Virus record (IMG/VR): IMGVR_UViG_3300032280_000442
Span: 224,001 to 288,000 of that record
Direction: 5' to 3' (one strand)
Length of the DNA stretch: 64,000 nucleotides
Source of the DNA: a virus
Lineage: Duplodnaviria; Caudoviricetes
This document shows, piece after piece, positions 1-16,681 of the stretch. The notes below the pieces were generated by a model, which did no database searches, was not told where the DNA came from, and saw nothing but the letters and a program-made list of their open reading frames with translations. Position 1 is the stretch's first letter, and each line of letters starts with the position of its first letter. The translations under genes were made by a program, and so were the position numbers.

Positions 1-2705
1 ATATTTTGATTGAATGAGAAATTTGAATGAAACATAGATTCCATATTAGTCACTTTAGAAACATTCCAACTTCCAATTGGTTGATTAAATGTTGATAATC
101 TAAACATCCAATACATACTGACATTGGTTAAAGTATTAATTGTCCAAGCACTAATTGACGGTGACCCCCCATTATTAAATGATGAAACTACAAACATTCC
201 ACCAAAATCATTAACTTTACTAACGTCCCAATTTCCAATGTTTTGGTTAAATGGTGTGGCGTTAAACATTCCAAACATACTAGTAACATTTGATGTTGAC
301 CAACCACTTATTGATGGTGAACCACCATTATTAAATGAGTTAACCGATGGAAAACCTTGAAGCATCAACGACATATTAGTAACGTTTGAAACGTCCCAAC
401 TTCCAATATTTTGATTAAATGATTGTGCGCTTCTGAACATATACGACATATTAGTGACACTACTAACATTCCAAGAATTTAAAGGTTGATTAAATGGTGT
501 GGAACTAAACATATTATTCATATTAGTAACATTTGACACATCCCAAGAATTAATATTCTGATTAAAAGATGAAGTATTAAACGTATAACTCATATTCGTC
601 ACATTTGAAACATTCCAACCGGATAATGGTTGGTTAAATATTGTTTGAGCAAACATACCCGCCATATTAGTAACATTTCCAACATTCCAATTATTAATAG
701 GTTGATTAAAAGATGATAATTCAAACATTGATGACATATTTGTAACATTACTTACATTCCAACCGGATAATGGTTGATTAAAGATACTTGCAAATAAGAA
801 CATATTACTCATATTAGTAACATTAAAAGTATTCCAATTTGATATAGTACTTGAACCACCATTATTAAATAAGAAAGCCGAATCAAACATACCCTCCATA
901 TTGATTACATTACTCACGTCCCAATCACCAATATTATCATCAAATGATGACGCTACTTGGAACATATAAGACATATCAGTAACATTTGACGTGTCCCAAG
1001 AATTAATATAAGGGATATTTGTTATTGATGAACAACTTTCAAACATAAGGGATAAATTATTGACACCATTTAAATTTAAAACATCGTTCACATTTGATAA
1101 TGATAAATTGGTACAAACATAGAAATTACCACCACTATTACCTAATCTTAGACAACCCCATTGTAAAACTTCATATATTTTGGAAGCGCTGACTGAATTT
1201 ATTAAAAACGACCAACCAACTAATGTTCCGGTTATTGTTATCGTATAATCACCGGGAGTTACGTATATATGTGTTCGATTATCGTAAATATTTTCTGATG
1301 TGGTCCCATCACCCCAATCAATTGTTCCATAGTAAAACCCTGACGTTTCGTATGGCAATGTGATTGATGTGTTAGGTGATGTTGTTCTCCAAACAGAAAT
1401 AAATGATGGTGGTGTTATAGGTTCACAAGTTTGATATTTAATACATAACTCACAATCTATATATGTTGTTCCGTGATTCCAAAAATCGGTTACCCACGTT
1501 CTAATTTTAGATTCTCTAATTATCTCTAAACATTCTCCATATGAATTTACAATAGCCGTTCCGGGTAAAAATGTTGTCGGTAACATTATGTATTTTATGA
1601 TTTTTTTGAAACAACAAGATTGGACTTGAAATAAAGTATATTTAATCGGTGTTGTTGGTGTTGGAGTCGGTGTAAGTGTTGAGGTTGGTGTTGGTGTTGG
1701 ACACGCTCCCACAATACCATAACTTCCACTAGTGGTTAATCTATAAACACTATTACATTCCGCACATATATTTTGAGTAAACTCTGTACCAAAATCACTT
1801 CTTGGAATATTAATATTAATTGATAAATTACTTCCACAAGGCGTATATTGAAAGGTTGAATTTCCACCTTTACCTGAACCACCATATAATATATAATTTC
1901 TACAACCAATACAAGGTGTTGCCGATGGTGTTGGTGTTGGTGTTTTAGTTGGACAAGGGTAAATAAAATTGGCTCTTTGACAATGAACAACACTTGGTTG
2001 AGACCCCATTGCAATGAATGAATAAACATTATTAGTCGATGAACTTACTACATAAGTTGCACAACCAACAAAACCGTTACTCTCAATATAATAAGCCCCG
2101 GATAAAGGACTAAACGAACCCGGTATATTAGATAATGTAAATTGATTTAATGAGTTACAACTATCTTCAAAATATCCCACAATTGGAGGTAATGTTGGGG
2201 TTGGTGTTGGTGTCGGAGTCGGTGTAGGAGTCGGACCAGGACATTCGTCATTAATACAGATATCTGAAGATATGTTGATTGTTACACCACTATCAGCAAA
2301 TGGATTACTACCACAAACAAATAATGTTGTTGCGGAATATATTACACCATAAAAAGGTTCTCCACCACAATTTATGTAATTATAAGTTAAAGTTACCCCC
2401 GAAGTATTTTCGAAGGATATACAATTACACGGAGCTTTTGTTGGTGTTGGTGTTAGTGTGGATGTTGGTGTTTGTGAAGGTTTTGGGTCATCACAATTAT
2501 GATACTGAAGTTCTGAACAACCAAGAGAATCAGTAATTACAACTAATACTTCATCAACATTAATAAGTTCTACCGGAATGTTAATTGTCAATGGAGCCGA
2601 TGTAGCTCCTGAGACACCTAAATAACAATACGTGTTTGTAATATCACAAATTGTAATATCATAAGGAGAGTGTCCTGTTAAACTTGTGATTTGTATTACT
2701 TGCAT
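1..2705 (-). CDS. Large virion surface/adhesin protein (Cys-rich modules, Pro/Thr linkers, PKD domain, DUF285/BspA-like repeats); 3' end runs off the window
   Basis: Not in the ORF track because it lacks a stop in the window. Manual translation from ATG 2705 (MQVIQITSLTGHSPYDITICD...) stays open through TPTPTPT linkers, FISVWRTT...IDWGDG (PKD) and INSWDTSNVTDMSYMF-type repeats. Confidence 0.85.
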   Translation of the reverse strand, partial: MQVIQITSLTGHSPYDITICDITNTYCYLGVSGATSAPLTINIPVELINVDEVLVVITDSLGCSELQYHNCDDPKPSQTPTSTLTPTPTKAPCNCISFENTSGVTLTYNYINCGGEPFYGVIYSATTLFVCGSNPFADSGVTINISSDICINDECPGPTPTPTPTPTPTPTLPPIVGYFEDSCNSLNQFTLSNIPGSFSPLSGAYYIESNGFVGCATYVVSSSTNNVYSFIAMGSQPSVVHCQRANFIYPCPTKTPTPTPSATPCIGCRNYILYGGSGKGGNSTFQYTPCGSNLSININIPRSDFGTEFTQNICAECNSVYRLTTSGSYGIVGACPTPTPTSTLTPTPTPTTPIKYTLFQVQSCCFKKIIKYIMLPTTFLPGTAIVNSYGECLEIIRESKIRTWVTDFWNHGTTYIDCELCIKYQTCEPITPPSFISVWRTTSPNTSITLPYETSGFYYGTIDWGDGTTSENIYDNRTHIYVTPGDYTITITGTLVGWSFLINSVSASKIYEVLQWGCLRLGNSGGNFYVCTNLSLSNVNDVLNLNGVNNLSLMFESCSSITNIPYINSWDTSNVTDMSYMFQVASSFDDNIGDWDVSNVINMEGMFDSAFLFNNGGSSTISNWNTFNVTNMSNMFLFASIFNQPLSGWNVSNVTNMSSMFELSSFNQPINNWNVGNVTNMAGMFAQTIFNQPLSGWNVSNVTNMSYTFNTSSFNQNINSWDVSNVTNMNNMFSSTPFNQPLNSWNVSSVTNMSYMFRSAQSFNQNIGSWDVSNVTNMSLMLQGFPSVNSFNNGGSPSISGWSTSNVTSMFGMFNATPFNQNIGNWDVSKVNDFGGMFVVSSFNNGGSPSISAWTINTLTNVSMYWMFRLSTFNQPIGSWNVSKVTNMESMFHSNFSFNQN

Positions 2706-2707
2706 TA

Positions 2708-2926
2708 TTACTTAATAATTAACTCATCTGTAGATTGTTTATCATAATTAATACCAAATTTTGATAGTTCAGTTACAAATTCTTCACGAATAGTTGTTGT
2801 AAACATATTAGGTTTTGGTGTTATCATATATTGACCGGATGTAACCTCACCATAATGAGGTAATGTTTCATAATCATCGTATGATATAAAATAAGTTGTT
2901 ACTGAGGGGTATTTAATTTCGTTCAT
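2708..2926 (-). CDS. Small hypothetical protein (paralogue of 2957-3151), possible fibre chaperone
   Basis: 72-aa ORF tightly packed in the operon; shares a HYG...GQ..T motif with its neighbour. Confidence 0.65.
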   Translation of the reverse strand: MNEIKYPSVTTYFISYDDYETLPHYGEVTSGQYMITPKPNMFTTTIREEFVTELSKFGINYDKQSTDELIIK

Positions 2927-2956
2927 ATTTTATAAGTATTTAGAAACTAATTTAAA

Positions 2957-3151
2957 TTAAACCTGTGATTGGTTTATTATTGGGGAATTTGATATATATT
3001 CTTGACCTAAATCAAGAACTCTATCAATTAATTCTTGTTCTGTATCGAAATACTCTAAAAATGGTTGTCCTGTTGTAACCACCTGTCCTTCTCTAAGACT
3101 TCCATAATGAAACACGGTAGTTTCGTTATGTGCTAAATAAAATTTGTTCAT
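2957..3151 (-). CDS. Small hypothetical protein (paralogue of 2708-2926)
   Basis: 64-aa ORF containing FHYGSLREGQVVTT. Confidence 0.65.
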   Translation of the reverse strand: MNKFYLAHNETTVFHYGSLREGQVVTTGQPFLEYFDTEQELIDRVLDLGQEYISNSPIINQSQV

Positions 3152-3174
3152 ATTATTATTATTTTAATTATTTA

Positions 3175-5430
3175 TTATATTCCTCCACCATCAACTATGG
3201 TCCAACCCCAACCTGTTTGAAGATACGCTTGACCTTCATCATAAATATATGGGTTAGAAAATGAACTACCAATTAAATCAAAAGTAAAACTATCTATAAC
3301 ATCTATAAACCAAACCCCATTAGCCTCAACTGTTCCATTAGATGGTGATACAGAAAGATATATTTTCATACCGCTATATAATATATCTCCAGGGTCATAA
3401 AGTAAATAAACTCTACATAAACCAGAACCATTATTAGTAATATCTGAAATAGGATAAATATTTGCTGGTCTACTAAGTAAAGCTCTACCTTCAAATGATA
3501 CTGATGTGGTATAATTTGCCGTTCCAAATGATATTGACTGATATGTTTGAATAAAAGTCAAATTAGACCACCCATTATAAATTGCATCAAGATTGGCAGC
3601 AGAAAACGTTGATGGTGTTTTAGTTGACATAAAATTTGAAAAGCTTGAAACAAACCCAATATTCCAATTACCAATGTCTTGATTAAACGCGACAGCACCT
3701 TGAAACATTTGACTCATATCAATAACGCCACTAACATTCCAACCACTCAACGGTTGGTTAAAACTTATTGAGTTAGAAAACATAAAATCCATATAATCAA
3801 CACTACTGACATCCCAATTACCAATAGGTTGATTAAAATTTGAAGCACTACTAAACATACCACCCATACTTGTAACGCCAGTAACATTCCAACCACTTAA
3901 AGGTTGATTAAAACTTGTTGCACCAGCAAACATAGAATTCATATTTGTAACACTACTAACATTCCAATTATTAATATTTTGATTAAAATTTGGAGTACTA
4001 TTAAGCATAGCATACATACTTGTAACTCTACTAACATTCCAACCACTTAATGGTTGATTAAAATTTGTTGCTTGTTGAAACATTTGAGACATACTAGTAA
4101 CTCCACTAACATTCCAATTATTAATATCTCTATTAAAAGATGTTGCTTGTTGAAACATAGAACCCATATTTGTAACATTACTAACATTCCAACCACTTAA
4201 AGGTTGATTAAAAGATGTTGCTTGTAGAAACATAGAATTCGCATTTGTAACACCACTAACATTCCAATTATTAATATCTTTATTAAAAGATGTTGCAGTA
4301 GTAAACATATTAGCCATATTTACAACTCTATTAACATTCCAATTACCAATATCTTGATTAAAAGATGTTGCTTGTTGAAACATAAAGGCCATATCTATAA
4401 CTCTACTAACATTCCAACCACTTAAAGGTTGATTAAAATTTGAAGCACTATTAAACATAAAAGCCGTATCTGTAACACCACTAACATTCCAATCATTAAT
4501 ATTTTGATTAAAATTTGAAGCAATATTAAACATACCCCTCATAGTTGTAACTCTACTAACGTTCCAACCACTTAAAGGTTGATTAAAATTTGAAGCACTA
4601 CTAAACATTGAGGACATATTAGTAACACCACTAACATTCCAATCATTAATATTTTGATTAAAATTTGAAGCACTATTAAACATAGTAGCCATATTTGTAA
4701 CATTACTAACATTCCAACCACTTAAAGGTTGGTTAAAGTTTGTTGCTCCTTGAAACAAAGCAATCATATTGGTAACATTACTAACATTCCAAGAATTTAT
4801 AGGTTGATTAAAATTTGGTGTTACACCAAACATTTGCTGCAAATCATTTACATTAGACAAATCCCAATTATTAATACCGGTAACATAATTAACGAGTGTG
4901 TTTGCAAAAAAACCAAACAAACTTAAAAGAGTGTTAGGTACTCTTGGTGTTAAATCAATTAAATCTTTTGTGTTATAAGTTAAATTAGTACACCCATTAA
5001 ATGGCCCTGACCCAACGGTAAGCTGTTTAAAAGTGCCCCATTGTATAATTTGAAGTATTTTTAATCTATCACCACCAGTATTAAATTGAAACCCATCAAT
5101 AATCCCTTTTATTTTTATAGTGTAAATACCGGCAGTTGCGTACGTATGTGTAATAGCCGCTGCGTTATAGGCTCTAATAATGTCTATACTTCCATCACCC
5201 CAATCAACGGTAAAATTATAATTACCGTTAATACTTAAAGGTAATCTAACTTGTTTGTTTGTTGATACACCAGCATTTCTTGTATTCCAAACGGTTATAA
5301 AGGACTTTCCATCTTCAGGTGTTTCATTGGAAATGTTCCCGCTATCCAAACCACTAAAGTAATTTGACAGAGTTCCAACACTATTTCCGTTAAATGTTAA
5401 TCCGTTATTTAAACCGTTGAATAATCCCAT
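3175..5430 (-). CDS. PKD + DUF285/BspA-like repeat surface protein
   Basis: FITVWNT...VDWGDG PKD motif followed by ~16 tandem 25-aa FNQPLSGWNVSxVTxMxxMF repeats. Confidence 0.88.
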   Translation of the reverse strand: MGLFNGLNNGLTFNGNSVGTLSNYFSGLDSGNISNETPEDGKSFITVWNTRNAGVSTNKQVRLPLSINGNYNFTVDWGDGSIDIIRAYNAAAITHTYATAGIYTIKIKGIIDGFQFNTGGDRLKILQIIQWGTFKQLTVGSGPFNGCTNLTYNTKDLIDLTPRVPNTLLSLFGFFANTLVNYVTGINNWDLSNVNDLQQMFGVTPNFNQPINSWNVSNVTNMIALFQGATNFNQPLSGWNVSNVTNMATMFNSASNFNQNINDWNVSGVTNMSSMFSSASNFNQPLSGWNVSRVTTMRGMFNIASNFNQNINDWNVSGVTDTAFMFNSASNFNQPLSGWNVSRVIDMAFMFQQATSFNQDIGNWNVNRVVNMANMFTTATSFNKDINNWNVSGVTNANSMFLQATSFNQPLSGWNVSNVTNMGSMFQQATSFNRDINNWNVSGVTSMSQMFQQATNFNQPLSGWNVSRVTSMYAMLNSTPNFNQNINNWNVSSVTNMNSMFAGATSFNQPLSGWNVTGVTSMGGMFSSASNFNQPIGNWDVSSVDYMDFMFSNSISFNQPLSGWNVSGVIDMSQMFQGAVAFNQDIGNWNIGFVSSFSNFMSTKTPSTFSAANLDAIYNGWSNLTFIQTYQSISFGTANYTTSVSFEGRALLSRPANIYPISDITNNGSGLCRVYLLYDPGDILYSGMKIYLSVSPSNGTVEANGVWFIDVIDSFTFDLIGSSFSNPYIYDEGQAYLQTGWGWTIVDGGGI
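3660..4870 (-). repeat. In-frame ~75-bp tandem repeat array (DUF285 repeats) with a 150-bp higher-order period
   Basis: Recurrent ctaacattccaaccacttaaaggttgattaaaa units alternating with ctaacattccaat(c/t)attaatat units. Confidence 0.85.
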
Positions 5431-5446
5431 TATTTAATATAAAATG

Positions 5447-5899
5447 TTATGCTTGATAATCCGCTCCGTGAGCAACAATCCAAGCGGCTCTTGAAGCGGT
5501 TAAGTTGGCAAGTGATGATGCTCTTAAAATATCATTACCTTGAAGAGGAATATATCTTTTACCCGTATTATCTAATGGTAATCCAAGAATGTTAATACCG
5601 TCAAGAAAATCGGTATTAAAACGAGCGGCGTTTGTATTACCGGCAGATAATGGAATGTTAACAAGTCCTACAGGAAGAACAATCGCTCCACGTAAGATAT
5701 AAACCCATATGTTAGTTGTGACGGTATCTGTGGTATAACCCATAAGTGAATATACTCTACCACCTAAAGAACCTGCGGTGTATATTGTTGTACCATTATT
5801 GTTCGTACCAAGAGCTCCGATAGTTGTACCCGATAATACCGCAACACCACTATTTGGTACGTTGGCTAAAACCGGTATTTGTCCATTTGTTAAAGGCAT
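5447..5899 (-). CDS. Hypothetical virion/fibre-associated protein
   Basis: 150-aa Gly/Thr-rich, beta-rich ORF within the fibre operon. Confidence 0.7.
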   Translation of the reverse strand: MPLTNGQIPVLANVPNSGVAVLSGTTIGALGTNNNGTTIYTAGSLGGRVYSLMGYTTDTVTTNIWVYILRGAIVLPVGLVNIPLSAGNTNAARFNTDFLDGINILGLPLDNTGKRYIPLQGNDILRASSLANLTASRAAWIVAHGADYQA

Positions 5900-5928
5900 T
5901 TTTTTGTGTTTTTAAATTTTATTTGTTA

Positions 5929-7575
5929 TTAATAATTATATAAATTTCTAAATGATGTCATAAGAAGATAATCAATATCTCCTCCAACTATTGTTGTTGC
6001 ACTAAAGGTATTTGCCGTTAGACCATTTGTAAAGGTTGTTGCACCTGAAACTGTTCCTCCACTCAAAGGTAATGATGGTAAATTTTGATATGTTGTTGCA
6101 GATATTGTAGTAGCCGTTATATTATTAGCTGTTAGATTATTATTACCTAAATTAACATTTGTAGTTGCTCCACTATATGGAACTAATCCAGCTATACTTA
6201 CACTAGCTACTGGTAGTTGTAATCTTGAATTGGTGGAATCATCGTAAAATAATGTAATATCACGATTTACACCACTTAATATATTTGCATAAATTTTAAC
6301 CACTAATCTATCAGTAGTCAATATGGTTACATTAGTAGGTAATAGTATGCTAACTGTTTGTTGAATTACTACGTTGGTTGCTATTACAGATGTCATATCA
6401 CTAGTACCAAGAAGAGTTTCTGTTCCAGCTAAGTTTCGTTTGTAAATTTCAGCAAAACATTCGTAAGTATTACTTCCTGTATTTTTTTGAGTTTCAAAAT
6501 GTACCGTTACAATTCCACTTGGAATTACGCTTGTATTGGGGTAATTAAGGTTTGTTGCAAAATTAGCTAATAACGTTGGTGAAGTTGAAACTGTTGTTAC
6601 AATTGAAGCAATAGCGTTTGGAACAAATAATGGTAATATAACCATTTGTTCATACCCCCCTATATCTGAATTATTTGAACTGAATATATATGAGTCACTA
6701 ACATTTGTTGGTAAACCCAAATATGTCGTTGCTGATATTGTTGTTGCTGATATTGTTGTTGATGTTAAACCTCCCGTAAAATTTGTTGCCCCCGATACTG
6801 TACCACCGGTAAACGATGTTCCTGTACTTGTACTAAAACCAGAGACACCAAATGTTCCTCCGCTATTATTTGTAAAAGTTGCGGTTCCATTATTATAAGT
6901 TCCTCCGGTTACAAATATGTCTTTAGGTAAATTCTGATATGTTGTTGCAGAAATTGTATTTGCCGTTAATCCACCTGTAAAGATTGTTCCACCTGAAACG
7001 GTTCCTCCGGTAAATGTTTCACCACCACCGGTCTGTAATACTCTCCAAGAAGCGTTTGTGTCGTTATAACCACCGATACCTGATATTGTTGAAGATGTCC
7101 AAGCACTTATAAACGCAATTCCGGCAGCTGAGTTATTCTTAACCGTTGTTCCATAATCTGAGATAACCACAGTTTGACCACCAGGTCCCGTGGCACCTGT
7201 TGCGTTATTCCATAAAGTATCATAATTATCAATTCTAAATTGATATATTTTATTGGTTTCATAAACATATACTAACATTCCCAATTTTCTTCTACCCGAA
7301 GAAATATTATCAGAATTTAATGTTAATACATCAGGGGAGAAAACCGAACCGGAACCTTTTACTAATTGAATTGGAACGGAGTTACCTGAAAATTCAATAA
7401 TTCCAGTTGTTGCCGGAGGTATCGTATAGGTTAATCCGGATAAATCATAAACCTCCATATATCCACCTGTTTGAAGGATACTGAAGTTTGTACCAAAGGT
7501 TGCGTTATTTGGGACAGATGGGTTACCAAATGATGTTATAGGAGAAACCGGTATTTTGTTTAAAAAATCACTCAT
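5929..7575 (-). CDS. Tail-fibre-like protein with GGTVSG.T.FT.GLT..T.SATT repeats
   Basis: 548 aa; repeated GGTVSG(A/G)TxFTxGLTxxTxSATT units. Confidence 0.7.
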   Translation of the reverse strand: MSDFLNKIPVSPITSFGNPSVPNNATFGTNFSILQTGGYMEVYDLSGLTYTIPPATTGIIEFSGNSVPIQLVKGSGSVFSPDVLTLNSDNISSGRRKLGMLVYVYETNKIYQFRIDNYDTLWNNATGATGPGGQTVVISDYGTTVKNNSAAGIAFISAWTSSTISGIGGYNDTNASWRVLQTGGGETFTGGTVSGGTIFTGGLTANTISATTYQNLPKDIFVTGGTYNNGTATFTNNSGGTFGVSGFSTSTGTSFTGGTVSGATNFTGGLTSTTISATTISATTYLGLPTNVSDSYIFSSNNSDIGGYEQMVILPLFVPNAIASIVTTVSTSPTLLANFATNLNYPNTSVIPSGIVTVHFETQKNTGSNTYECFAEIYKRNLAGTETLLGTSDMTSVIATNVVIQQTVSILLPTNVTILTTDRLVVKIYANILSGVNRDITLFYDDSTNSRLQLPVASVSIAGLVPYSGATTNVNLGNNNLTANNITATTISATTYQNLPSLPLSGGTVSGATTFTNGLTANTFSATTIVGGDIDYLLMTSFRNLYNY

Positions 7576-7579
7576 ATTA

Positions 7580-8620
7580 TTATGTTATTGTGTTACCCCT
7601 CATATAAATATTTTGAGTATCGGTTATCTTGAATATTGTATTAGGGTAAGTTGTATAAACTCTATATGTTATTGGAGGAATTGTTGCTCCGGTATATGTA
7701 AATGTATATGAATTTATTGTACTTTCGGTTCCAACACCCGTTAATAAATTAGGACTATTACTTGTGTTAATATCAATAATTGTCTGTTTCTTATTATTAG
7801 TCAACGAAACAGGTATTATCCAAGTATACCATCCACTACCATTAACATATCCTGCCGGTATTTTTGTTGTTAAGAAATTATAAGCAACAATTGAGTTATT
7901 ATATTGGTCCTCACCACCTGATGTTTGAGGAACAGTTTGTTGTATCAATGATGGGAATAAACCATTTGTCCAACCACTAAAATCAACATACTTATTCATA
8001 TCAATATTAAACTCAGTTTGATTTTGCGTCGGTTGAGAATAATTTGTAAACCCAAAGAAGTTTCTACCACTATTATACATCCATTGACCTATATTTGTTG
8101 AACCTGAAACTGGTTCGATAAATAAATATGCAAAATACGCCGGTGTAGGTGTAGGTGTTGGAGTTTTAGTCATTGTTGGTGTTTGACTTGGTGTGGTTGT
8201 ATTTGTCGGTGTAGGTGTTGGTGCATTAGGTGTTGATGTGTTTGTCGGTGTCTGTGTGTGAGTTGGGGTAATACTTGGTGTTGGCGTTGGTGTAGGGGAA
8301 ACATTACAAGGATTATATGTTGGTGTATTTGTTGGTGTACTTGTCGGTGTCGTTGTGTTTGTTGGAGTTTGAGTCATCGTTGGGGTTGGGGTTGGTGTAG
8401 GAACGGTTACATTCATAATTATTGGACAATCCGCACCCTCAATCAATATGGTATAAACACCATACACATCACGAGGAGGTGTTAATAATGACGGATTAAA
8501 CACATATGGTAATGATTGGTTTCCTAAATTAATAACCGCATTAACATTTACAGGTTTAAACAAAATATTTGCCACCTCACCACTATAATTTACGCTTTGT
8601 ATTGTTATTGTATTTGACAT
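7580..8620 (-). CDS. Virion protein with a Pro/Thr-rich linker
   Basis: 346 aa; ~90-residue TPTPT tract; N-terminal module shared with 51272-52948. Confidence 0.75.
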
Positions 8621-8637
8621 ATTTTATTTTTTTATTA

Positions 8638-11600
8638 TTAAGGTATACAATCCATTTCTGTTGTTACGGATTCAACCACACCTGAAGCATTTACATAAAC
8701 CCCATCATAAATAATAGCACCACTATTACATTCCCCATTTCTAAATAACGCACCAAAACCAGGACCATTACACGATACATATGATGTTAATTGTGGATTA
8801 TCATAGAACTGAGTTCCAACTACTATTGAAGGAGATAGTGAGTATACCGTTATTTCATCACAGTTGTATTGATAAGGTAGACAACATCCAAACAAATTAT
8901 ATGTGTAAACAGTTGGTCTTGTCGGTGTTGGTGTTCTTGTCGGTGTTGGAGTTTGTGTTCTCGTAAGTGTTGGTGTATTTGTTGGTGTGGTTGTTGGAGT
9001 TTGTGTTGGTGTTAATGTTGGTGTTCTCGTAAGTGTTGGTGTTGGGGTGTTAGTTGGTGTTGGACAAGCAAACGCGTTAACTGTAGGTGCCGGTAAAACA
9101 CCTAGTTCCGCTAATCCCCACGAGGTTTCCTGATAAGGATATTGTGGTGGAGGTGTAGTGTTACCATAATAATAAGTAGCCTCATCATCAGAGTTATATA
9201 TACTCCACACTGTTATTCCTAAAACTTCTTGAAGAATAATACTAAAAGCATTGTATACGTAGTATGGCCTATTGAATCCATTTAGTGTGTAATTACCAGC
9301 ATATGTGTACGTACCATTCGCCCCAACACTTCCAGCTCCACTAACACATACACTACCTGCAGGTGTTGTAGTTGGCGTAATTGTTGGTGTGCGTGTGAGT
9401 GTTGAAGTGTTTGTTGGTGTTAAAGTATTTGTTGGAGTTAAAGTATTTGTTGGTGTTACACTTGGTGTTGTTGTATTAGTTGGAGTTATAGTGTTTGTAG
9501 GTGTTACACTTGGTGTTGTTGTATTAGTTGGAGTTATAGTGTTTGTAGGTGTTATACTTGGTGTGACTGTATTTGTCGGCGTCACTGATGGTGTTACACT
9601 TGGTGTTGTTGTATTAGTTGGAGTTATAGTGTTTGTAGGTGTTATACTTGGTGTGACTGTATTTGTCGGCGTCACTGATGGTGTTACACTTGGTGTAGGA
9701 GTCACCGTTGGTGTAGGACCATTAATTGTAAATGTAAAATCATCCACAGGACAAAATTCTTCACCACAATCAGGACAATCCGGATTAAACATATTAAAAG
9801 TATCCTTTAATAAATTAAAATTATGTTTAACCTCAGGTGCGGATAATGGTGAGACATACATTCTGAATTGAGATATAGCCCCATCAAATGTTCCTCCAAA
9901 ATTTTGTTCCAATAATATATTTGTGGTTAACCCACTATACATAGTACCAACTAAATCATTTGTTGGTAAAGATTCGGGGTCTTGAATATATGTTGTTCCG
10001 GTTGTTGATGAGAATGTTAAATTTTCTCTTAAACCCTGTGTTCCACCACCCCACGAAATATTAAACGGAACACCAACTTGTTTTTCTTTATCTGTATTTA
10101 AACCTCTTGGAATAATCTCCTCAAAATTCTCTATAGTAAAAAATCTTCTACCATTAATATATATTTTTAGTCTACCTTTTCTATAATGTTTATCAATTAA
10201 CCATTTTTCGTTTAAATCAACTAATTCAACTTCACCCGGTGCTGGATATCCTACTTGAGTGTATGGAGGTGCGATTAATGACATTGAATTGTTAGCTAAT
10301 GATTCTAAAAGTTTTCTTTCAGTTATATCTCCTAATCCTCCACGATACCACAAATCACAAGTATCTAACCAAGTGTATCTTTCCCATACCGCATCAAGTT
10401 GGAACCAATGTTCTTCTTCCAAATACGCAGGATTTACATTCTCACAATAATCATATATTCCTGTTGGAGAACAATACTCAGTTATAGTATATCCTGTTTG
10501 ATAAGTTATCCCACTAGTCTCACAAGACCCTGTTGTAACACAATCACCAGTAAATCTTAATACTTTAACACCTATTGATGGATTATGTGGGTCACCACAT
10601 AATTTAAATGAAATCGCGTTGGATATTGAATCAAATAATGGGTCCGTTTCACAAGTTGATTGGACTGATGATTCACAAGTATGGTTTCTACATTCCCATC
10701 CACAGATATCATTTTCAAATGTTGGGCAACCACAAGATGAACAAACATAAGACGATGAATTACAACCACAAGTATTACAACCATAATTATGATGAGGGTC
10801 GTGGTCACCATTAATACTTCTTGGTGGATAAACATAGATACAACGACTATCTGTTACCCCTGTATTACAACAAGCACAAGTTTCTAACCCAACTAATCCG
10901 GAAGTAACTCGAGTATAAGCGGATATCCCACCCATAAATCCATCCGCGTGATGATAAAATTTATTCTCAGCACGAGTTCCCATATAAAAGAATATATTTT
11001 TATTTTGGGGATAAACAACATTTAATGTTGTTTCACCTGAAGATGGTGAGTATTCGTTATTTTCCGGAAATCTTGGTTTTAATAACATTTCAACAGACCA
11101 TCCTTTATTCATCCTTTCAGGGAATATCTCGTAATCATAACCAAATAACTTGTAAAATCCTTGATAAAATCCACCATATAATTGGTGGATGTTAGTTCCA
11201 CTAATTAAATCATACTGACTAATAACCTCATATAATATGGTTTTATTAAATCCTGTAAATCTAATATTACTACTAGTATATCCTGTAACTTGGAACATTT
11301 TAAATCGTCTATCAAACGATAATCTATCAAACTTAGTAAAATCATTAATCCCATTGGTAAATGTTATTGTTTGTCCGGTCATACCTGTAACCAATCCATT
11401 ATCAATTCCGGTTAAACCAATATCACAAGATGTGTTAGCGGTTAAACAACTTAAATCTAAATTATCAGGATTATAATAGTTTTTAGAAACAAAAACATTA
11501 TTAAAATTGTAATGTTTATAAATTAAAGAATATTGTTGGACAGAACTACTATCGTCAATATCAAAATAAAATGGTAATCTATTACCGTATGTTTGAGCAA

Positions 11601-13791: not shown

Positions 13792-14424
13792 ATGACAAAC
13801 GAATTAAGTTTAATGGAAAAATTAGCGGTATCCAAAAAAATAATGGACGCCCATAATAGAATACCAACAGGTGGAGCATCACAATCAATGGGGTCTTATA
13901 ATACGCCTATGGTTGAAAATTACGAACCAGTAAAAGCTTCTTATAATATACCTCAAGAATTATTACAAGAATCTGAAATAAACCAACCATATTTATCATC
14001 AATACCAAAAACTCCATCTGCACCACAACCATTAACAAGTGATAGAGTTATGGCATCAAAATTACCTGACGCAATTAAAAGATTAATGATTGAACACCCT
14101 ATTGAAATTCCAAACTCAATGGGAGGTGGTGGTTCTGTATTATCAGATGAATTAGTTGAAAAAGCAACTAGATTGATGAATACAGATGCTAGAGGAAATC
14201 AAGTTAATCAACCAAAACAAGTTGTTAGAGAACAATCCCCTATACAACAACCTCAAGTTAATAATAAACAATTACGTGAAATGTTAAAAGAAGTTGTAGA
14301 GGAAGTCTTACAAGAAAACGGAATTTTATCAGAATCAGAACAAAAATCAAACGAAGTCTTTTCTTTTAAAGTAGGAAAACATATATTTGAAGGTAAGGTT
14401 ACTAAGATAAAAAAAATCTCTTAA
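13792..14424 (+). CDS. Hypothetical phage protein
   Basis: 210-aa ORF followed by an intrinsic terminator. Confidence 0.75.
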   Translation: MTNELSLMEKLAVSKKIMDAHNRIPTGGASQSMGSYNTPMVENYEPVKASYNIPQELLQESEINQPYLSSIPKTPSAPQPLTSDRVMASKLPDAIKRLMIEHPIEIPNSMGGGGSVLSDELVEKATRLMNTDARGNQVNQPKQVVREQSPIQQPQVNNKQLREMLKEVVEEVLQENGILSESEQKSNEVFSFKVGKHIFEGKVTKIKKIS

Positions 14425-14444
14425 CTTTATTTACTCTCAAGATT

Positions 14445-14474
14445 AACCCCTTTCTACCAAGATTGGGGTTTTTT
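14445..14474 (+). terminator. Rho-independent terminator
   Basis: AACCCC...GGGGTT stem followed by a T-run, 20 nt after the stop at 14424. Confidence 0.7.
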
Positions 14475-14508
14475 ATTTTAAAATAGTTTCCTTTTGATTA
14501 AACCGGTA

Positions 14509-14516
14509 TATTTATA
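14509..14516 (+). promoter_or_regulatory. Putative late-promoter motif TATTTATA
   Basis: Lies 17 nt upstream of ATG 14534. Confidence 0.55.
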
Positions 14517-14533
14517 TAATAAAAAATTATGTT

Positions 14534-15448
14534 ATGGATATTAAAACTGAAAAAAAAATTATCTCCGAATATAAAAAGGGAAAAAGTAGTTTAGACATTG
14601 TTAAAATTGTTGGTTTATCAAAACCTACAATCCTTAAAGTATTAAACAAACATAATCTCGTTAGAAAAAGAGATAGATGTTCCACATTAGATATTAAAAA
14701 AGAGGGGGAAAGATATTATATAACTCGTAAATGCCCTAAATGTAATAAAGACATTAAAACAACTTCAAAAGATAAAGTAATTGCGTGTAGGAATTACTTT
14801 AACGCAATTAATAGCCATCATAATTGTGTTAAATGTATGTCAGAATCATTTATTGGGGAGGGAAATCATTTCTTTGGTAAAACACATACCAAAGAAAGTA
14901 TTAAAAAAATGTCTAAAAGTAAAACAGGTCAATATACCGGAGACAAAAACCATATGAAACAAGAAAAATATCGTCAAATGAGTAGAGATATTATGAGGTC
15001 AAATTGGGATAACGGTATTTTAGATAGAAAAGTCATTTCAGAACAAATGAAACAAACTCAGAGAAGTGGTAAAATTAAATCCGGTATAATATCAAAAAGA
15101 GAAAAAGAAATTGTTAAAGAAATAAAACAATTGGGTTATAAACTAATTCATTCATATCGTGTTGATACTAAAATTTGTGATGTATACATACCATCATTAA
15201 ATTTAATTATCGAATATTTTGGTGACTATTGGCATTGTAACCCCAAAAAATACGAATCGGATTTTTTTAATAAAAAAAAGGGTAAGTTTGCTTGGGAATT
15301 ATGGGATTATGATAAAAAGAAACTTGAATTAATCAAAAGTTATGGTTATAATTTAGAAGTTGTGTGGGAGGGTGACCTTAAACTCAACAATAAATTAATA
15401 GAAATCATAATAGAAAACTATGTCACAAAACTCACTTCAACGCCCTAA
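14534..15448 (+). CDS. Free-standing homing endonuclease (HTH + CxxC Zn finger + NUMOD3 + Vsr/DUF559-like nuclease)
   Basis: N-terminal HTH-like segment, CPKC/CVKC, GEGNHFFGKTHTKESIKKMS (NUMOD3), C-terminal CDVYIP..NLIIEYFGDYWH...GYNLEVVWE. Confidence 0.8.
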   Translation: MDIKTEKKIISEYKKGKSSLDIVKIVGLSKPTILKVLNKHNLVRKRDRCSTLDIKKEGERYYITRKCPKCNKDIKTTSKDKVIACRNYFNAINSHHNCVKCMSESFIGEGNHFFGKTHTKESIKKMSKSKTGQYTGDKNHMKQEKYRQMSRDIMRSNWDNGILDRKVISEQMKQTQRSGKIKSGIISKREKEIVKEIKQLGYKLIHSYRVDTKICDVYIPSLNLIIEYFGDYWHCNPKKYESDFFNKKKGKFAWELWDYDKKKLELIKSYGYNLEVVWEGDLKLNNKLIEIIIENYVTKLTSTP

Positions 15449-16681
15449 CGGTCAAGAAAAGATTAGCGTACTTGTACTGCCATCTGACCGTACGGGCGTT
15501 GGTTAAATCAAGGTAAATTTAGGTCAGTTGACCCCCACGTATTCCTACAAAACCTGTATCCGGATGACTTCCACGTAGATATTGACTACGAACCACAGAT
15601 AAATAATGTCGAATATTGGAAAAAATATCAGATAGTTCACGCTCACAGAACAATTGGGCAAGATTATAATATCGCACCTCAATTAATTGAATGGTTAAAA
15701 TCAATTGGTATTATTGTTATTATTGACCTTGATGATTATTGGTTACCAACTAAGGAACATCCAATACATAATATTATTGTTAAACATAAAATTGATGAGA
15801 AAATTAAGGCAAACTTAAAAGTTGCGTCATATGTAACAACCACTACGGATATTTTTGCAAATGAAATTAAAAAATTAAACAAAAATGTTATTGTATTTCC
15901 AAACGCAATTAATCCAAAAGAATTACAATTTAATCAACCAACACCTCCATCAGATAAAATTAGAGTAGGATGGTTAGGTGGTTCATCTCATTTACACGAC
16001 TTAGAATTACTTGGCGGGTTTGTACAAAAAAATCAAGATATTAACGATAAATTACAATACGTTATTTGTGGGTTCGATACAAGAGGGACTGTTACGGAAA
16101 TTAACCCACAAACAGGAGAAGAAAAACAAAGAGATATTTTACCTCACGAAACAGTGTGGGCTCGTTATGAAGAGATTTTTACCACTAACTATAAGACAAT
16201 CGATGATGACTATAAAAAGTTTTTATTAGAGTTTAAAGAAGGTGAATACAATTCAGGAAATAATTTACCATATGTTCGAGTTTGGACTAAACCTGTTACT
16301 ACTTATGCTATGAATTATTCAAAATTTGATATATCTTTGGCACCAATTAAAAACCATATTTTTAATGTAATGAAATCTCAGTTAAAAGTGATTGAAGCTG
16401 GATTTTATAAAAAAGCGTTAATTGCGTCTGAGATTGGTCCTTATACAATTGATTTAGTTCATTGTTTAAAAAATGGTGAGTTTAATGAAGAAGGTAACGC
16501 TATTCTAATTCCTGAAAATAGAAATCATAGTGATTGGGCTAAATCGATTAAGAAATTGGTTCAAAATCCTGAAATGATTAAAGTATTGGGTGAGAGATTA
16601 TATAATACCGTTAAGGATAAATACGATTTAAATATTGTAACAAAAAATAGAGCAGAATTTTACAAATCTTTAATAAAATAA
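15420..16681 (+). CDS. GT-B fold glycosyltransferase split by an 11-nt insert (15504-15514); ~416 aa if the insert is bypassed, otherwise a pseudogene
   Basis: ATG 15420 gives MSQNSLQRPNGQEKISVLVLPSDRTGVG*. The -1 frame continues KFRSVDPHVFLQ...IIDLDDYW...VFPNAI...RVGWLGGSSHLHDL, open through the track ORF 16154-16681 (DISLAP...FNVMKSQLKVIEAG), and has no start codon before 16154. Confidence 0.8.
15437..15502 (+). other. GC-rich RNA hairpin ending on the putative take-off codon
   Basis: CAACGCCC (15438-45) pairs with GGGCGTTG (15494-501) and ACGGTCA (15448-54) pairs with TGACCGT (15485-91), separated by a 2x2 internal loop. Confidence 0.7.

Follow-up and report, generated by a model that had tools for sequence, protein, structure and literature searches.

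A candidate mobile endonuclease cassette that interrupts a conserved glycosyltransferase gene of a Caudoviricetes phage with a short, probably bypassed gap

An endonuclease gene beside an interrupted glycosyltransferase gene

The DNA analyzed here is a stretch of 64,000 nucleotides (nt), positions 224,001 to 288,000 of the virus record IMGVR_UViG_3300032280_000442 (Duplodnaviria; Caudoviricetes), to which we refer as the window; the genome of this phage is 308,574 bp long. The window contains the gene of a homing-type endonuclease followed directly by a glycosyltransferase (GT) gene in which a short leader, a stop codon and an 11-nt gap precede the body of the protein (Table 1). The first-pass annotation had proposed that the endonuclease gene and the insert form a mobile cassette parallel to mobA and gene 60 of phage T4, the insert destroying the target site of the enzyme and bypassing repairing the reading frame. 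The positions on which this proposal was built are all correct, including the 29-nt overlap of the two genes (endonuclease end at 15448, ATG at 15420) and the 55 nt from the endonuclease stop to the insert. It is also true, as had been noticed, that the 3' end of the endonuclease gene supplies the GT start codon, the ATG at 15420 lying inside the open reading frame (ORF) 14534-15448, and that it supplies a part of the 5' arm of a hairpin, namely 15440-15454, which contains the endonuclease stop and pairs with 15485-15499. When the window is compared (blastn) with two cassette-free relatives, L033 and L151, similarity ends at 14488 and resumes at 15512. The approximately 98 nt which the cassette replaces correspond to the intergenic promoter region and GT codons 1-17.

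Table 1. Features of the interrupted glycosyltransferase locus, in coordinates of the 64,000-nt window (aa, amino acids)
Feature	Position	Strand	Remarks
Candidate mobile cassette, bounds from comparison	14489..15511	+	1023 nt in place of ~98 nt in cassette-free relatives
Free-standing homing-type endonuclease gene, 304 aa	14534..15448	+	ORF translation, domains, fold
GT leader ORF, 28 codons, cassette-supplied	15420..15503	+	first 29 nt inside endonuclease ORF
5' stem-loop, ~60 nt	15440..15499	+	ends 1 nt before take-off codon; endonuclease stop (15446-48) in 5' arm
Proposed take-off codon GGT	15501..15503	+	leader Gly28, equal to Gly18 of uninterrupted homologues; last sense codon before stop
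Presumed untranslated gap, 11 nt, TAAATCAAGGT	15504..15514	+	TAA (15504-06), ATCAA, proposed landing codon GGT (15512-14)
GT body, 388 codons + stop	15515..16681	+	resumes at AAA (Lys); stop 16679-81
UUGACC (Val-Asp-Pro codons), possible take-off stem partner of GGUUAA (15501-06, take-off codon + stop)	15528..15533	+	read from sequence

From the ATG at 15420 the leader translates as MSQNSLQRPNGQEKISVLVLPSDRTGVG, that is, a 10-residue N-terminal extension followed by the strand and the Gly-rich loop with which the native GT begins, and it ends with ...PSDRTGVG on the GGT codon at 15501-03, immediately before the TAA at 15504-06. The body, read from AAA at 15515, begins with KFRSVDPHVFLQ (KFRSVDPH...), and its frame, which is one base behind the leader frame, is open from 15488. 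Deleting exactly the 11 nt 15504-15514 fuses GVG to KFRS. There is no ATG, GTG or TTG within the first 213 codons of the body after 15515, and the start-less stretch of this frame, counted from the preceding stop, amounts to 222 codons. The next longest such stretch in the whole 308,574-bp genome has 71 codons, and the GT frame is the sole long ORF in it with a long start-less stretch.

A protein search with the 388-aa body returned thousands of relatives, of which the best 120 matches were inspected. Among these, 115 are full-length proteins (405-407 aa) that begin, unbroken, with MKEKINVLVLPSDKTGVGKFRSVDPH or its GVS version, and all 115 read GVGKFRSVDPH or GVSKFRSVDPH without interruption, so that GVG is followed by K at precisely the proposed take-off point. 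Uninterrupted proteins of 406 aa share 94-96% identity with the GT body of the window. When such proteins are aligned down to 67% identity, residues P11, S12, D13, G16, V17, K19, R21, S22, D24, P25 and H26 are invariant, and the motif at the junction can be written as PSDxxGV(G/S)KFRS. This is in accordance with the first-pass view that the 11-nt insert sits in a conserved part of the GT gene.

The protein is assigned to the glycosyltransferase family PHROG 7162 (E = 5e-41), and Pfam Glyco_trans_1_4 scores below its cut-off. In its structural model, which is of low confidence (predicted local distance difference test score, pLDDT, of 56), a strand at residues 5-10, a loop at 11-19 and a helix at 20-32 open an N-terminal domain of alternating strands and helices. 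Family membership together with this order of strand, Gly-rich loop and helix would place the GT in the GT-B type, and the junction would fall within the loop that links the first strand to the first helix and is itself modelled with low confidence. About ten further genes of this phage presumably also encode glycosyltransferases.

In the 304-aa endonuclease Pfam recognizes NUMOD3 (E = 3e-8), together with weak matches of helix-turn-helix, zinc-ribbon and PD-(D/E)xK type, and the protein falls into homing and HNH endonuclease families of PHROG. Its domain order is an N-terminal helix-turn-helix, a Cys4 zinc ribbon, the NUMOD3 motif, a linker and a C-terminal Vsr-like nuclease domain. A profile made from eight relatives matches the DNA-binding domain of I-TevI (1i3j). 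The AlphaFold model has a pLDDT of 74, with 73-86 in the C-terminal domain, and the top fold matches of this domain in the PDB are the catalytic domain of I-Bth0305I (3r3p_A and 3r3p_B, template modelling score, TM, 0.76-0.77 on target) and then Vsr (1cw0, 1vsr). As the alignment covers a single domain of the model, these fold matches have weak E-values (3.5e-3 to 2.6e-2), yet the top matches are mutually consistent. Pfam gave no Vsr match at E < 0.1. Residues D216, E227, H234 and D260, invariant in the alignment of eight sequences, are candidate counterparts of the EDxHD residues, and the stretch GDYWHCNP is invariant as well. Judged by these profiles and models, NUMOD3/Vsr-like homing endonuclease, as the first-pass annotation had called it, appears to be a fair label for this ORF: the NUMOD3 and 1i3j matches bear it out at one end of the protein and the 3r3p and 1cw0/1vsr folds at the other. 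The gene is present in a single copy in the genome.

Occurrence, transfer and decay of the cassette

Whether gap and endonuclease occur together was followed in four ways. In the sample seeded with the endonuclease, 31 loci from IMG/VR, the enzyme is encoded upstream of this GT at 17 loci, and 15 of these 17 have a gap at the same codon. The sample seeded with the GT body, which is unbiased in this respect, gave 34 usable loci, 29 of them without the endonuclease. None of these 29 contains a gap, and at both loci with a gap the endonuclease or its remnant is present, which makes two gaps at five endonuclease-bearing loci versus none at the other 29 (Fisher p ~0.02, calculated by hand). It was also predicted beforehand that GTs called with only 375-380 aa would be gap alleles, and the three loci behind P0075 and P0091 do show, downstream of a 304-aa endonuclease, a gap of 11 or 12 nt. 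A scan of metagenomes with an endonuclease profile added 19 more GT-linked loci and further gap types. In the pooled loci the endonuclease or a remnant accompanies the gap in 30 of 30 cases, and 29 of 29 loci without the endonuclease are also without the gap, so the co-occurrence across related phages that the first-pass annotation had proposed as a check is there. The association is one-sided: the gap is never found alone and members of the enzyme family are sometimes found without it.

Distant relatives of the endonuclease that do not adjoin this GT (L017-L031) showed, in a crude check, no comparable start-less ORF downstream. One GT relative of 48% identity lies on the opposite strand (L087:58-1203, minus), upstream of an endonuclease relative that is 38% identical. 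A DNA search of the phage collection gave no match, and the protein matches in that collection are distant (identity of 33% or less) and uninformative.

The most direct trace of transfer is found in a pair of closely related genomes, L001 with a 12-nt gap and the cassette-free L046, which share 97.5-97.7% identity in the 2.4 kb to either side of the junction. Between the shared flanks 1034 nt in L001 stand in for 110 nt in L046. Rightward from the landing codon, the first 480 nt contain 36 mismatches and the following 1560 nt a single one; on the left a similar mismatch tract of ~540 nt is found, which includes a terminator hairpin of the window's type. Outside these tracts of ~0.5 kb on each side the two genomes are about 99.9% identical. 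Double-strand-break repair in which sequence of a diverged donor is co-converted would be expected to leave such a pattern. The flanks of the window itself are only 83-90% identical to those of its nearest cassette-free relatives (L033 and L151), too diverged to show such a tract.

The phylogenetic trees are in accordance with this picture. On the GT-body tree the gap alleles are placed among cassette-free alleles in three separate clades, and for the same 25 loci the gap state requires two changes on the endonuclease tree versus five on the GT-body tree. Taken together, these comparisons support the view that gap and endonuclease are inherited and transferred as a unit. The mobile-cassette part of the first-pass proposal is in this way well supported, by the co-occurrence, by the co-conversion tracts in L001 and by the two versus five changes on the trees.

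Several loci look like stages of decay. In L023 (IMGVR_UViG_3300042861_000881; L023:3900-4200) the first ~8 codons of the endonuclease are joined to the last ~43, codons ~9-261 having been lost. Kept in this locus are an intact GT body, the leader and, between them, a gap of 11 nt (TAACCAAAGGT). L071 and L072 (2690-2780 in each) have the endonuclease and an N-terminal extension of the cassette type and no gap, the junction codon of L072 being TCA (Ser). They are sisters of the clade with 6-nt gaps on the endonuclease tree and have probably lost the gap secondarily. In a further clade (L013, L014, L081, L083 and L077) the endonuclease is shortened to ~250 aa, with ~50 residues missing between NUMOD3 and the nuclease domain, and it stands upstream of a gap-free GT that has the native MKEK start. 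Manning and Atkins (bioRxiv 10.1101/2022.08.31.505936) describe this series of decay for MobA elements too.

Gap variants, RNA structure and decoding of the interrupted gene

Gaps of 5, 6, 7, 8, 9, 11 and 12 nt were found, all at the same codon, and all three frame relations between leader and body are present among them. The 5-nt gaps are TAGGT and TGAGC, those of 6 nt are TAAGGC, TAAGGA, TAAGGT and TGAGGT, and the 7-nt gap is TGACGGC. The 8-nt gap is TGAATGGT and the 9-nt gap TAACCAGGC. The gaps of 11 nt are TAACCAAAGGT and TAAATCAAGGT, the latter being that of the window, and the gaps of 12 nt are TAACAAAACGGT, TAACCAACAGGT and TAAATCAAAGGT. The gap of the window is identical in L068 and L069, and in L067 one extra A makes it 12 nt long. 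Nearly identical cassettes can thus be one base apart in gap length, as in TAAATCAAGGT versus TAAATCAAAGGT and in TAACCAAAGGT versus TAACCAACAGGT.

Despite this variation in length, a stop codon (TAA, TGA or TAG) directly follows the take-off codon in 30 of the 30 gap loci, and in 28 of them the take-off and landing codons are synonymous. The Gly pairs seen are GGT/GGT, GGT/GGA, GGT/GGC and GGC/GGT. Two lineages have coordinated Ser pairs, AGC/AGC (L016) and AGT/AGC (L086), which fits the natural Gly/Ser polymorphism at this residue. A generic scan for a codon, a stop, the same codon and an open frame gave hundreds of chance matches inside ordinary genes, so without homology the pattern is worthless. 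The phage has 19 tRNA genes (G000 167-10404; 296225-296315), most of which form a single cluster close to the start of the genome; tRNA-Gly(UCC) is among them. Speculatively, the UCC anticodon could pair with any GGN landing codon if its U34 were unmodified.

Any account of how such genes are read has to deal with this series of gaps. Taken one at a time, every allele could formally be rescued by ordinary recoding, with a -1 frameshift for gaps of 5, 8 or 11 nt, readthrough for those of 6, 9 or 12 nt and a +1 shift for the 7-nt gap; in the window a -1 slip at GGT would yield GVG-LNQG-KFRS. One family would then need three different mechanisms, and an indel of a single nucleotide would switch the class between near-identical cassettes, which excludes frameshifting or readthrough as one common mechanism. 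A programmed -1 site was looked for in particular and rejected: the gap has neither a homopolymer run nor a slippery heptamer of the form X XXY YYZ, and a tRNA(Gly) or tRNA(Ser) that had slipped by -1 would meet TGG (in the window) or TAG (in L016), with which it cannot pair. Readthrough or reassignment of the stop was rejected as well, since the 11-nt gap shifts the frame, there is no suppressor among the 19 tRNAs and TAA terminates ordinary genes of the phage. We consider ordinary recoding the least probable of the explanations weighed here.

Almost as improbable is a GT made in two pieces, a leader peptide of 28 aa and a body of 388 aa re-initiated at a non-canonical codon, which associate afterwards. 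The subunits of the split topoisomerase of T4 and of NrdA of Aeh1 do so, endonuclease insertions that split genes whose products reassemble are known (Manning and Atkins 2022), and a conserved leader would be required in this case too. However, besides the lack of ATG, GTG or TTG over 213 codons, no variant has a near-cognate in-frame start just past the stop, a strand plus loop of 28 residues (the first strand and loop of a Rossmann-like domain in the low-confidence model) is unlikely to be a stable subunit, and the matched codons would be left unexplained. A ribosome that hops from the take-off to the landing codon is, as we infer from the comparison, the only decoding model that would fit all variants.

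The remaining possibility is that the cassette simply kills the GT. The junction would then be a scar of recombination, the matching codons a duplicated junction codon, and the bodies would look intact because the invasions are recent and the gene is dispensable. Given that cassettes are mobile with respect to GT bodies and have in some cases invaded very recently, a low ratio of non-synonymous to synonymous substitution rates (dN/dS) could predate the insertion. In most pairs the dN/dS of the GT body is 0.04-0.18, and between the window and L023 it is 0.06 at a dS of 0.63. All distinct gap alleles, about 20, retain an intact GT body of 387-423 codons, and not one of them has a second lesion in this AT-rich sequence. 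The landing codon drifts only synonymously, apart from the two lineages where it changes to Ser jointly with the take-off codon, and the endonucleases of gap loci have diverged to about 40% identity, which indicates that the arrangement is old.

The leader gives what is, on the comparison of alleles, a stronger argument for selection than the dN/dS of the body. It is 26-29 aa long in all gap-bearing alleles versus 17-18 aa in free alleles. Its core of 15 codons (K-I-x-V-L-V-L-P-S-D-x-x-G-V-G) has a ratio of non-synonymous to synonymous polymorphism (pN/pS) of 0.24 across 20 distinct cassette alleles, with codons that drift to the extent of serine switches between TCN and AGY and the use of all four proline codons. 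Since the leader always moves with the cassette, this conservation suggests that it is translated and needed as a protein, which is hard to reconcile with a dead gene. We therefore hold the loss of the GT to be unlikely, though a better rival to hopping than recoding or a two-piece enzyme.

A structured RNA precedes the gap. In cassette alleles, and not in free alleles, a three-tier hairpin over 60 nt ends 1-2 nt before the take-off codon. In the window (15440-15499) it consists of an outer stem ACGCCC/GGGCGU, a middle stem ACGGUCA/UGACCGU and an apical stem on GUAC repeats, and folding of single sequences gives the same hairpin in the window and in L001, L005, L006, L015 and L016. In a set of 13 distinct sequences, 98% of the outer helix is paired, four of them having a covarying exchange of CG for GC, and the whole hairpin is 72% paired versus 32-47% in controls with the partners slid. 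The z-score lies between -3.5 and -5.1 in several lineages and close to 0 in free alleles. A second stem can hold the take-off and stop codons in its 5' arm, paired with an invariant UUGACCCC, and reaches a folding free energy (dG) of -15 to -24 kcal/mol and z-scores down to -5.4 in the lineages with 5- and 6-nt gaps. A long-range pairing of CTGACC (15479-84) with GGTCAG (15523-28) was considered as well and dropped, as it is not conserved beyond the window's subclade. The 3' arm of the hairpin covers about positions -16 to -2 relative to the take-off codon and would be inside the ribosome at take-off, so its refolding could pull the mRNA forward. The same role has been proposed for the 5' stem-loop of gene 60 in two preprints (bioRxiv 10.1101/2024.12.09.627546; bioRxiv 10.1101/2022.08.31.505936).

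From the comparison of the loci we take four things to be established, namely the anatomy of the locus, the link between gap and endonuclease, the mobility of the cassette and the constraints to which the gap is subject. On these sequence data we consider it probable that this is a mobile endonuclease cassette whose gap is hopped by ribosomes and may protect the genome that carries it. Such a cassette would consist of the promoter-proximal NUMOD3/Vsr-like endonuclease gene, its own copy of GT codons 1-28 ending in GGT-TAA, and spacer bases. On recombining into a cassette-free genome it would replace the native start of the GT and leave the 11-nt gap between GVG and KFRS. When a ribosome arrives at GGT 15501-03, its P site would hold peptidyl-tRNA(Gly) and its A site TAA. 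This tRNA would then release the mRNA, which would slide forward. The 60-nt hairpin, its 3' arm just out of the P site, would probably aid the slide by refolding, as would, in certain lineages, the stem that holds the take-off codon. The same tRNA would pair again at GGT 15512-14 and synthesis would resume at AAA 15515, giving one enzyme of 416 aa.

As for protection, the gap would break a recognition site that spans the junction and so spare the cassette's own genome from cutting. Because the protein motif, and hence the DNA around it, can hardly change, skipped spacer bases would be the cheapest way to break the site. Within 37 nt of the junction there is no fixed nucleotide difference between free and cassette alleles except the gap. 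We find this protective role plausible. For a more specific version we have a somewhat weaker preference, namely that there is a natural family of stop-hops independent of gap length (a stop and 2-9 spacer bases), in which the P-site tRNA's re-pairing is driven mainly by refolding of the hairpin behind the ribosome, and which immunises a target that cannot mutate.

A number of observations weigh against this interpretation. Thirteen loci, about 10 distinct contigs, have an endonuclease relative and no gap, so the gap is not the sole way to coexist with this family of enzymes, and the idea that the gap destroys the target site is weakened by them. A test on independent pairs of loci gave three to four concordant and no discordant pairs (p 0.125-0.5), which is too few pairs. 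Release factors should compete strongly at the TAA, so the efficiency of the hop may be low. In the window itself the 5' hairpin has a z-score of only -1.5, and the take-off stem of its clade a dG of -9.5 kcal/mol and a z-score of 0.1. The matched codons could partly be an inherited duplication of the junction codon and not a product of selection, and the low dN/dS of the GT body may in large part be older than each invasion, because cassettes move. Two loci have near matches only. In L084 the codons are AGC and then GGC, where G-U pairing at the first position is still possible. In L094 (JABAHO010006862.1) AGC is followed by AGA over an 8-nt gap (TGACGAGA), and this gap may be unreliable because the poor scaffold contains Ns and a duplicated 13-residue segment inside the GT; for the same reason the truncated-looking GT of L094 was rejected as a case of decay and considered a scaffold artefact.

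Relation to known bypass and homing systems

The nearest known counterpart is gene 60 of T4 with its neighbor mobA, for which bypass and protection from cleavage have been shown experimentally (Bonocora et al. 2011, as summarised in bioRxiv 10.1101/2022.08.31.505936). In both systems the endonuclease gene is just upstream of the interrupted gene, and through the cassette the protein acquires a new N-terminal extension and a highly conserved motif a non-coding gap. Matched Gly codons for take-off and landing, a stop right after the take-off codon and a 5' stem-loop are likewise shared, flanking sequence is co-converted, and both have relatives that lost the endonuclease and kept the gap (here L023) or kept the extension and lost the gap. 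There is, however, no homology. The enzyme is of NUMOD3 and Vsr-like type here and an HNH enzyme in the case of MobA, the interrupted gene encodes a GT and not topoisomerase II, and the gap of the window has 11 nt, so that a homologue of the T4 element was ruled out. The gaps are also short and variable (5-12 nt) compared with the ~50 nt of gene 60, an internal Shine-Dalgarno element and a barrier to forward slippage are missing, and the GT is not split into two ORFs with separate starts. The T4 case is supported by experiment and ours by comparison of sequences. The parallel drawn by the first-pass annotation therefore holds for the codons, the stop, the 5' stem-loop, the extension and the loss stage seen in L023, and fails if common descent is meant; the design of the cassette would match that of mobA/gene 60 in function and not by descent.

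Other instances of bypass can be compared with the cassette. The hopping over a stop or hungry codon seen in E. coli test constructs (Manning and Atkins 2022) would be the same event as the hop proposed here, and it is low-level, inefficient and synthetic or incidental; the arrangement described here occurs naturally and is conserved, it is linked to a mobile element, and a conserved RNA structure goes with it. For a short bypass in a phage gene there is one experimentally supported precedent, the terminase g6/7 of Streptomyces phage phiHau3, where bypass takes place at a rare UUA codon and the junction peptide was found by mass spectrometry (PMC10732093). It shares with our locus the short range, the matched take-off and landing codons and the local RNA structure. 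The phiHau3 bypass differs in that it is triggered by a rare sense codon and has a proposed regulatory role, and neither a homing endonuclease nor a family of variable gaps is described for it. In mitochondria of Magnusiomyces capitatus 81 byp elements of 27-55 nt, similar to GC clusters, are found in 12 of 15 protein-coding genes (Lang et al. 2014, as cited by Manning and Atkins). These too are mobile inserts in coding sequence that translation skips; unlike the cassette they have no associated endonuclease and belong to a eukaryotic organelle.

The enzyme itself is similar to I-Bth0305I and other EDxHD (Vsr-like) homing endonucleases (PMC3239194) in joining a C-terminal nuclease fold to modular DNA-binding motifs. 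I-Bth0305I is encoded inside a group I intron; the endonuclease of the window is free-standing, and a translational hop, as we infer, takes the place of splicing in keeping the host gene usable. VSR-type endonucleases are reported to replace MobA or MobE in some phages (Manning and Atkins 2022). The 2022 survey places gene 60 homologues in topoisomerase genes only and calls the cassette unique (bioRxiv 10.1101/2022.08.31.505936), and our full-text literature searches found no description of a NUMOD3/Vsr-like endonuclease combined with a GT gap cassette. If the interpretation is right, bypassing has evolved more than once as a route for homing endonucleases into conserved coding sequence, and nature uses short stop-codon hops, which are otherwise familiar mainly from synthetic constructs. 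Translational bypass would then be a recurrent strategy of selfish DNA in phages beside introns and inteins and not a peculiarity of gene 60 in T4. With its range of gap lengths, stops, codon pairs and hairpin strengths, the family would also be a ready set of natural mutants for studying the mechanism of bypass.

Some minor features of the locus should be mentioned. Behind the gene upstream of the cassette (window 14445-14476) there is a hairpin AACCCC...GGGGUU followed by a run of T, which is kept in cassette-free relatives, which came into L001 together with the cassette and which the terminator scan did not call, its loop being too long. A search with Rfam over 14300-15800 gave nothing but two sub-threshold matches on this terminator-like hairpin, and the terminator and promoter scan of the locus gave nothing informative. 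Public gene calls of gap alleles (P0075, P0085, P0091, P0112 and P0120) begin at an internal Met and are 375-380 aa long versus ~416 aa for the complete enzyme. This indicates that databases hold systematically truncated versions of the GT (three loci were checked, from P0075 and P0091) and, if the interpretation is right, that gene callers systematically shorten or miss such genes.

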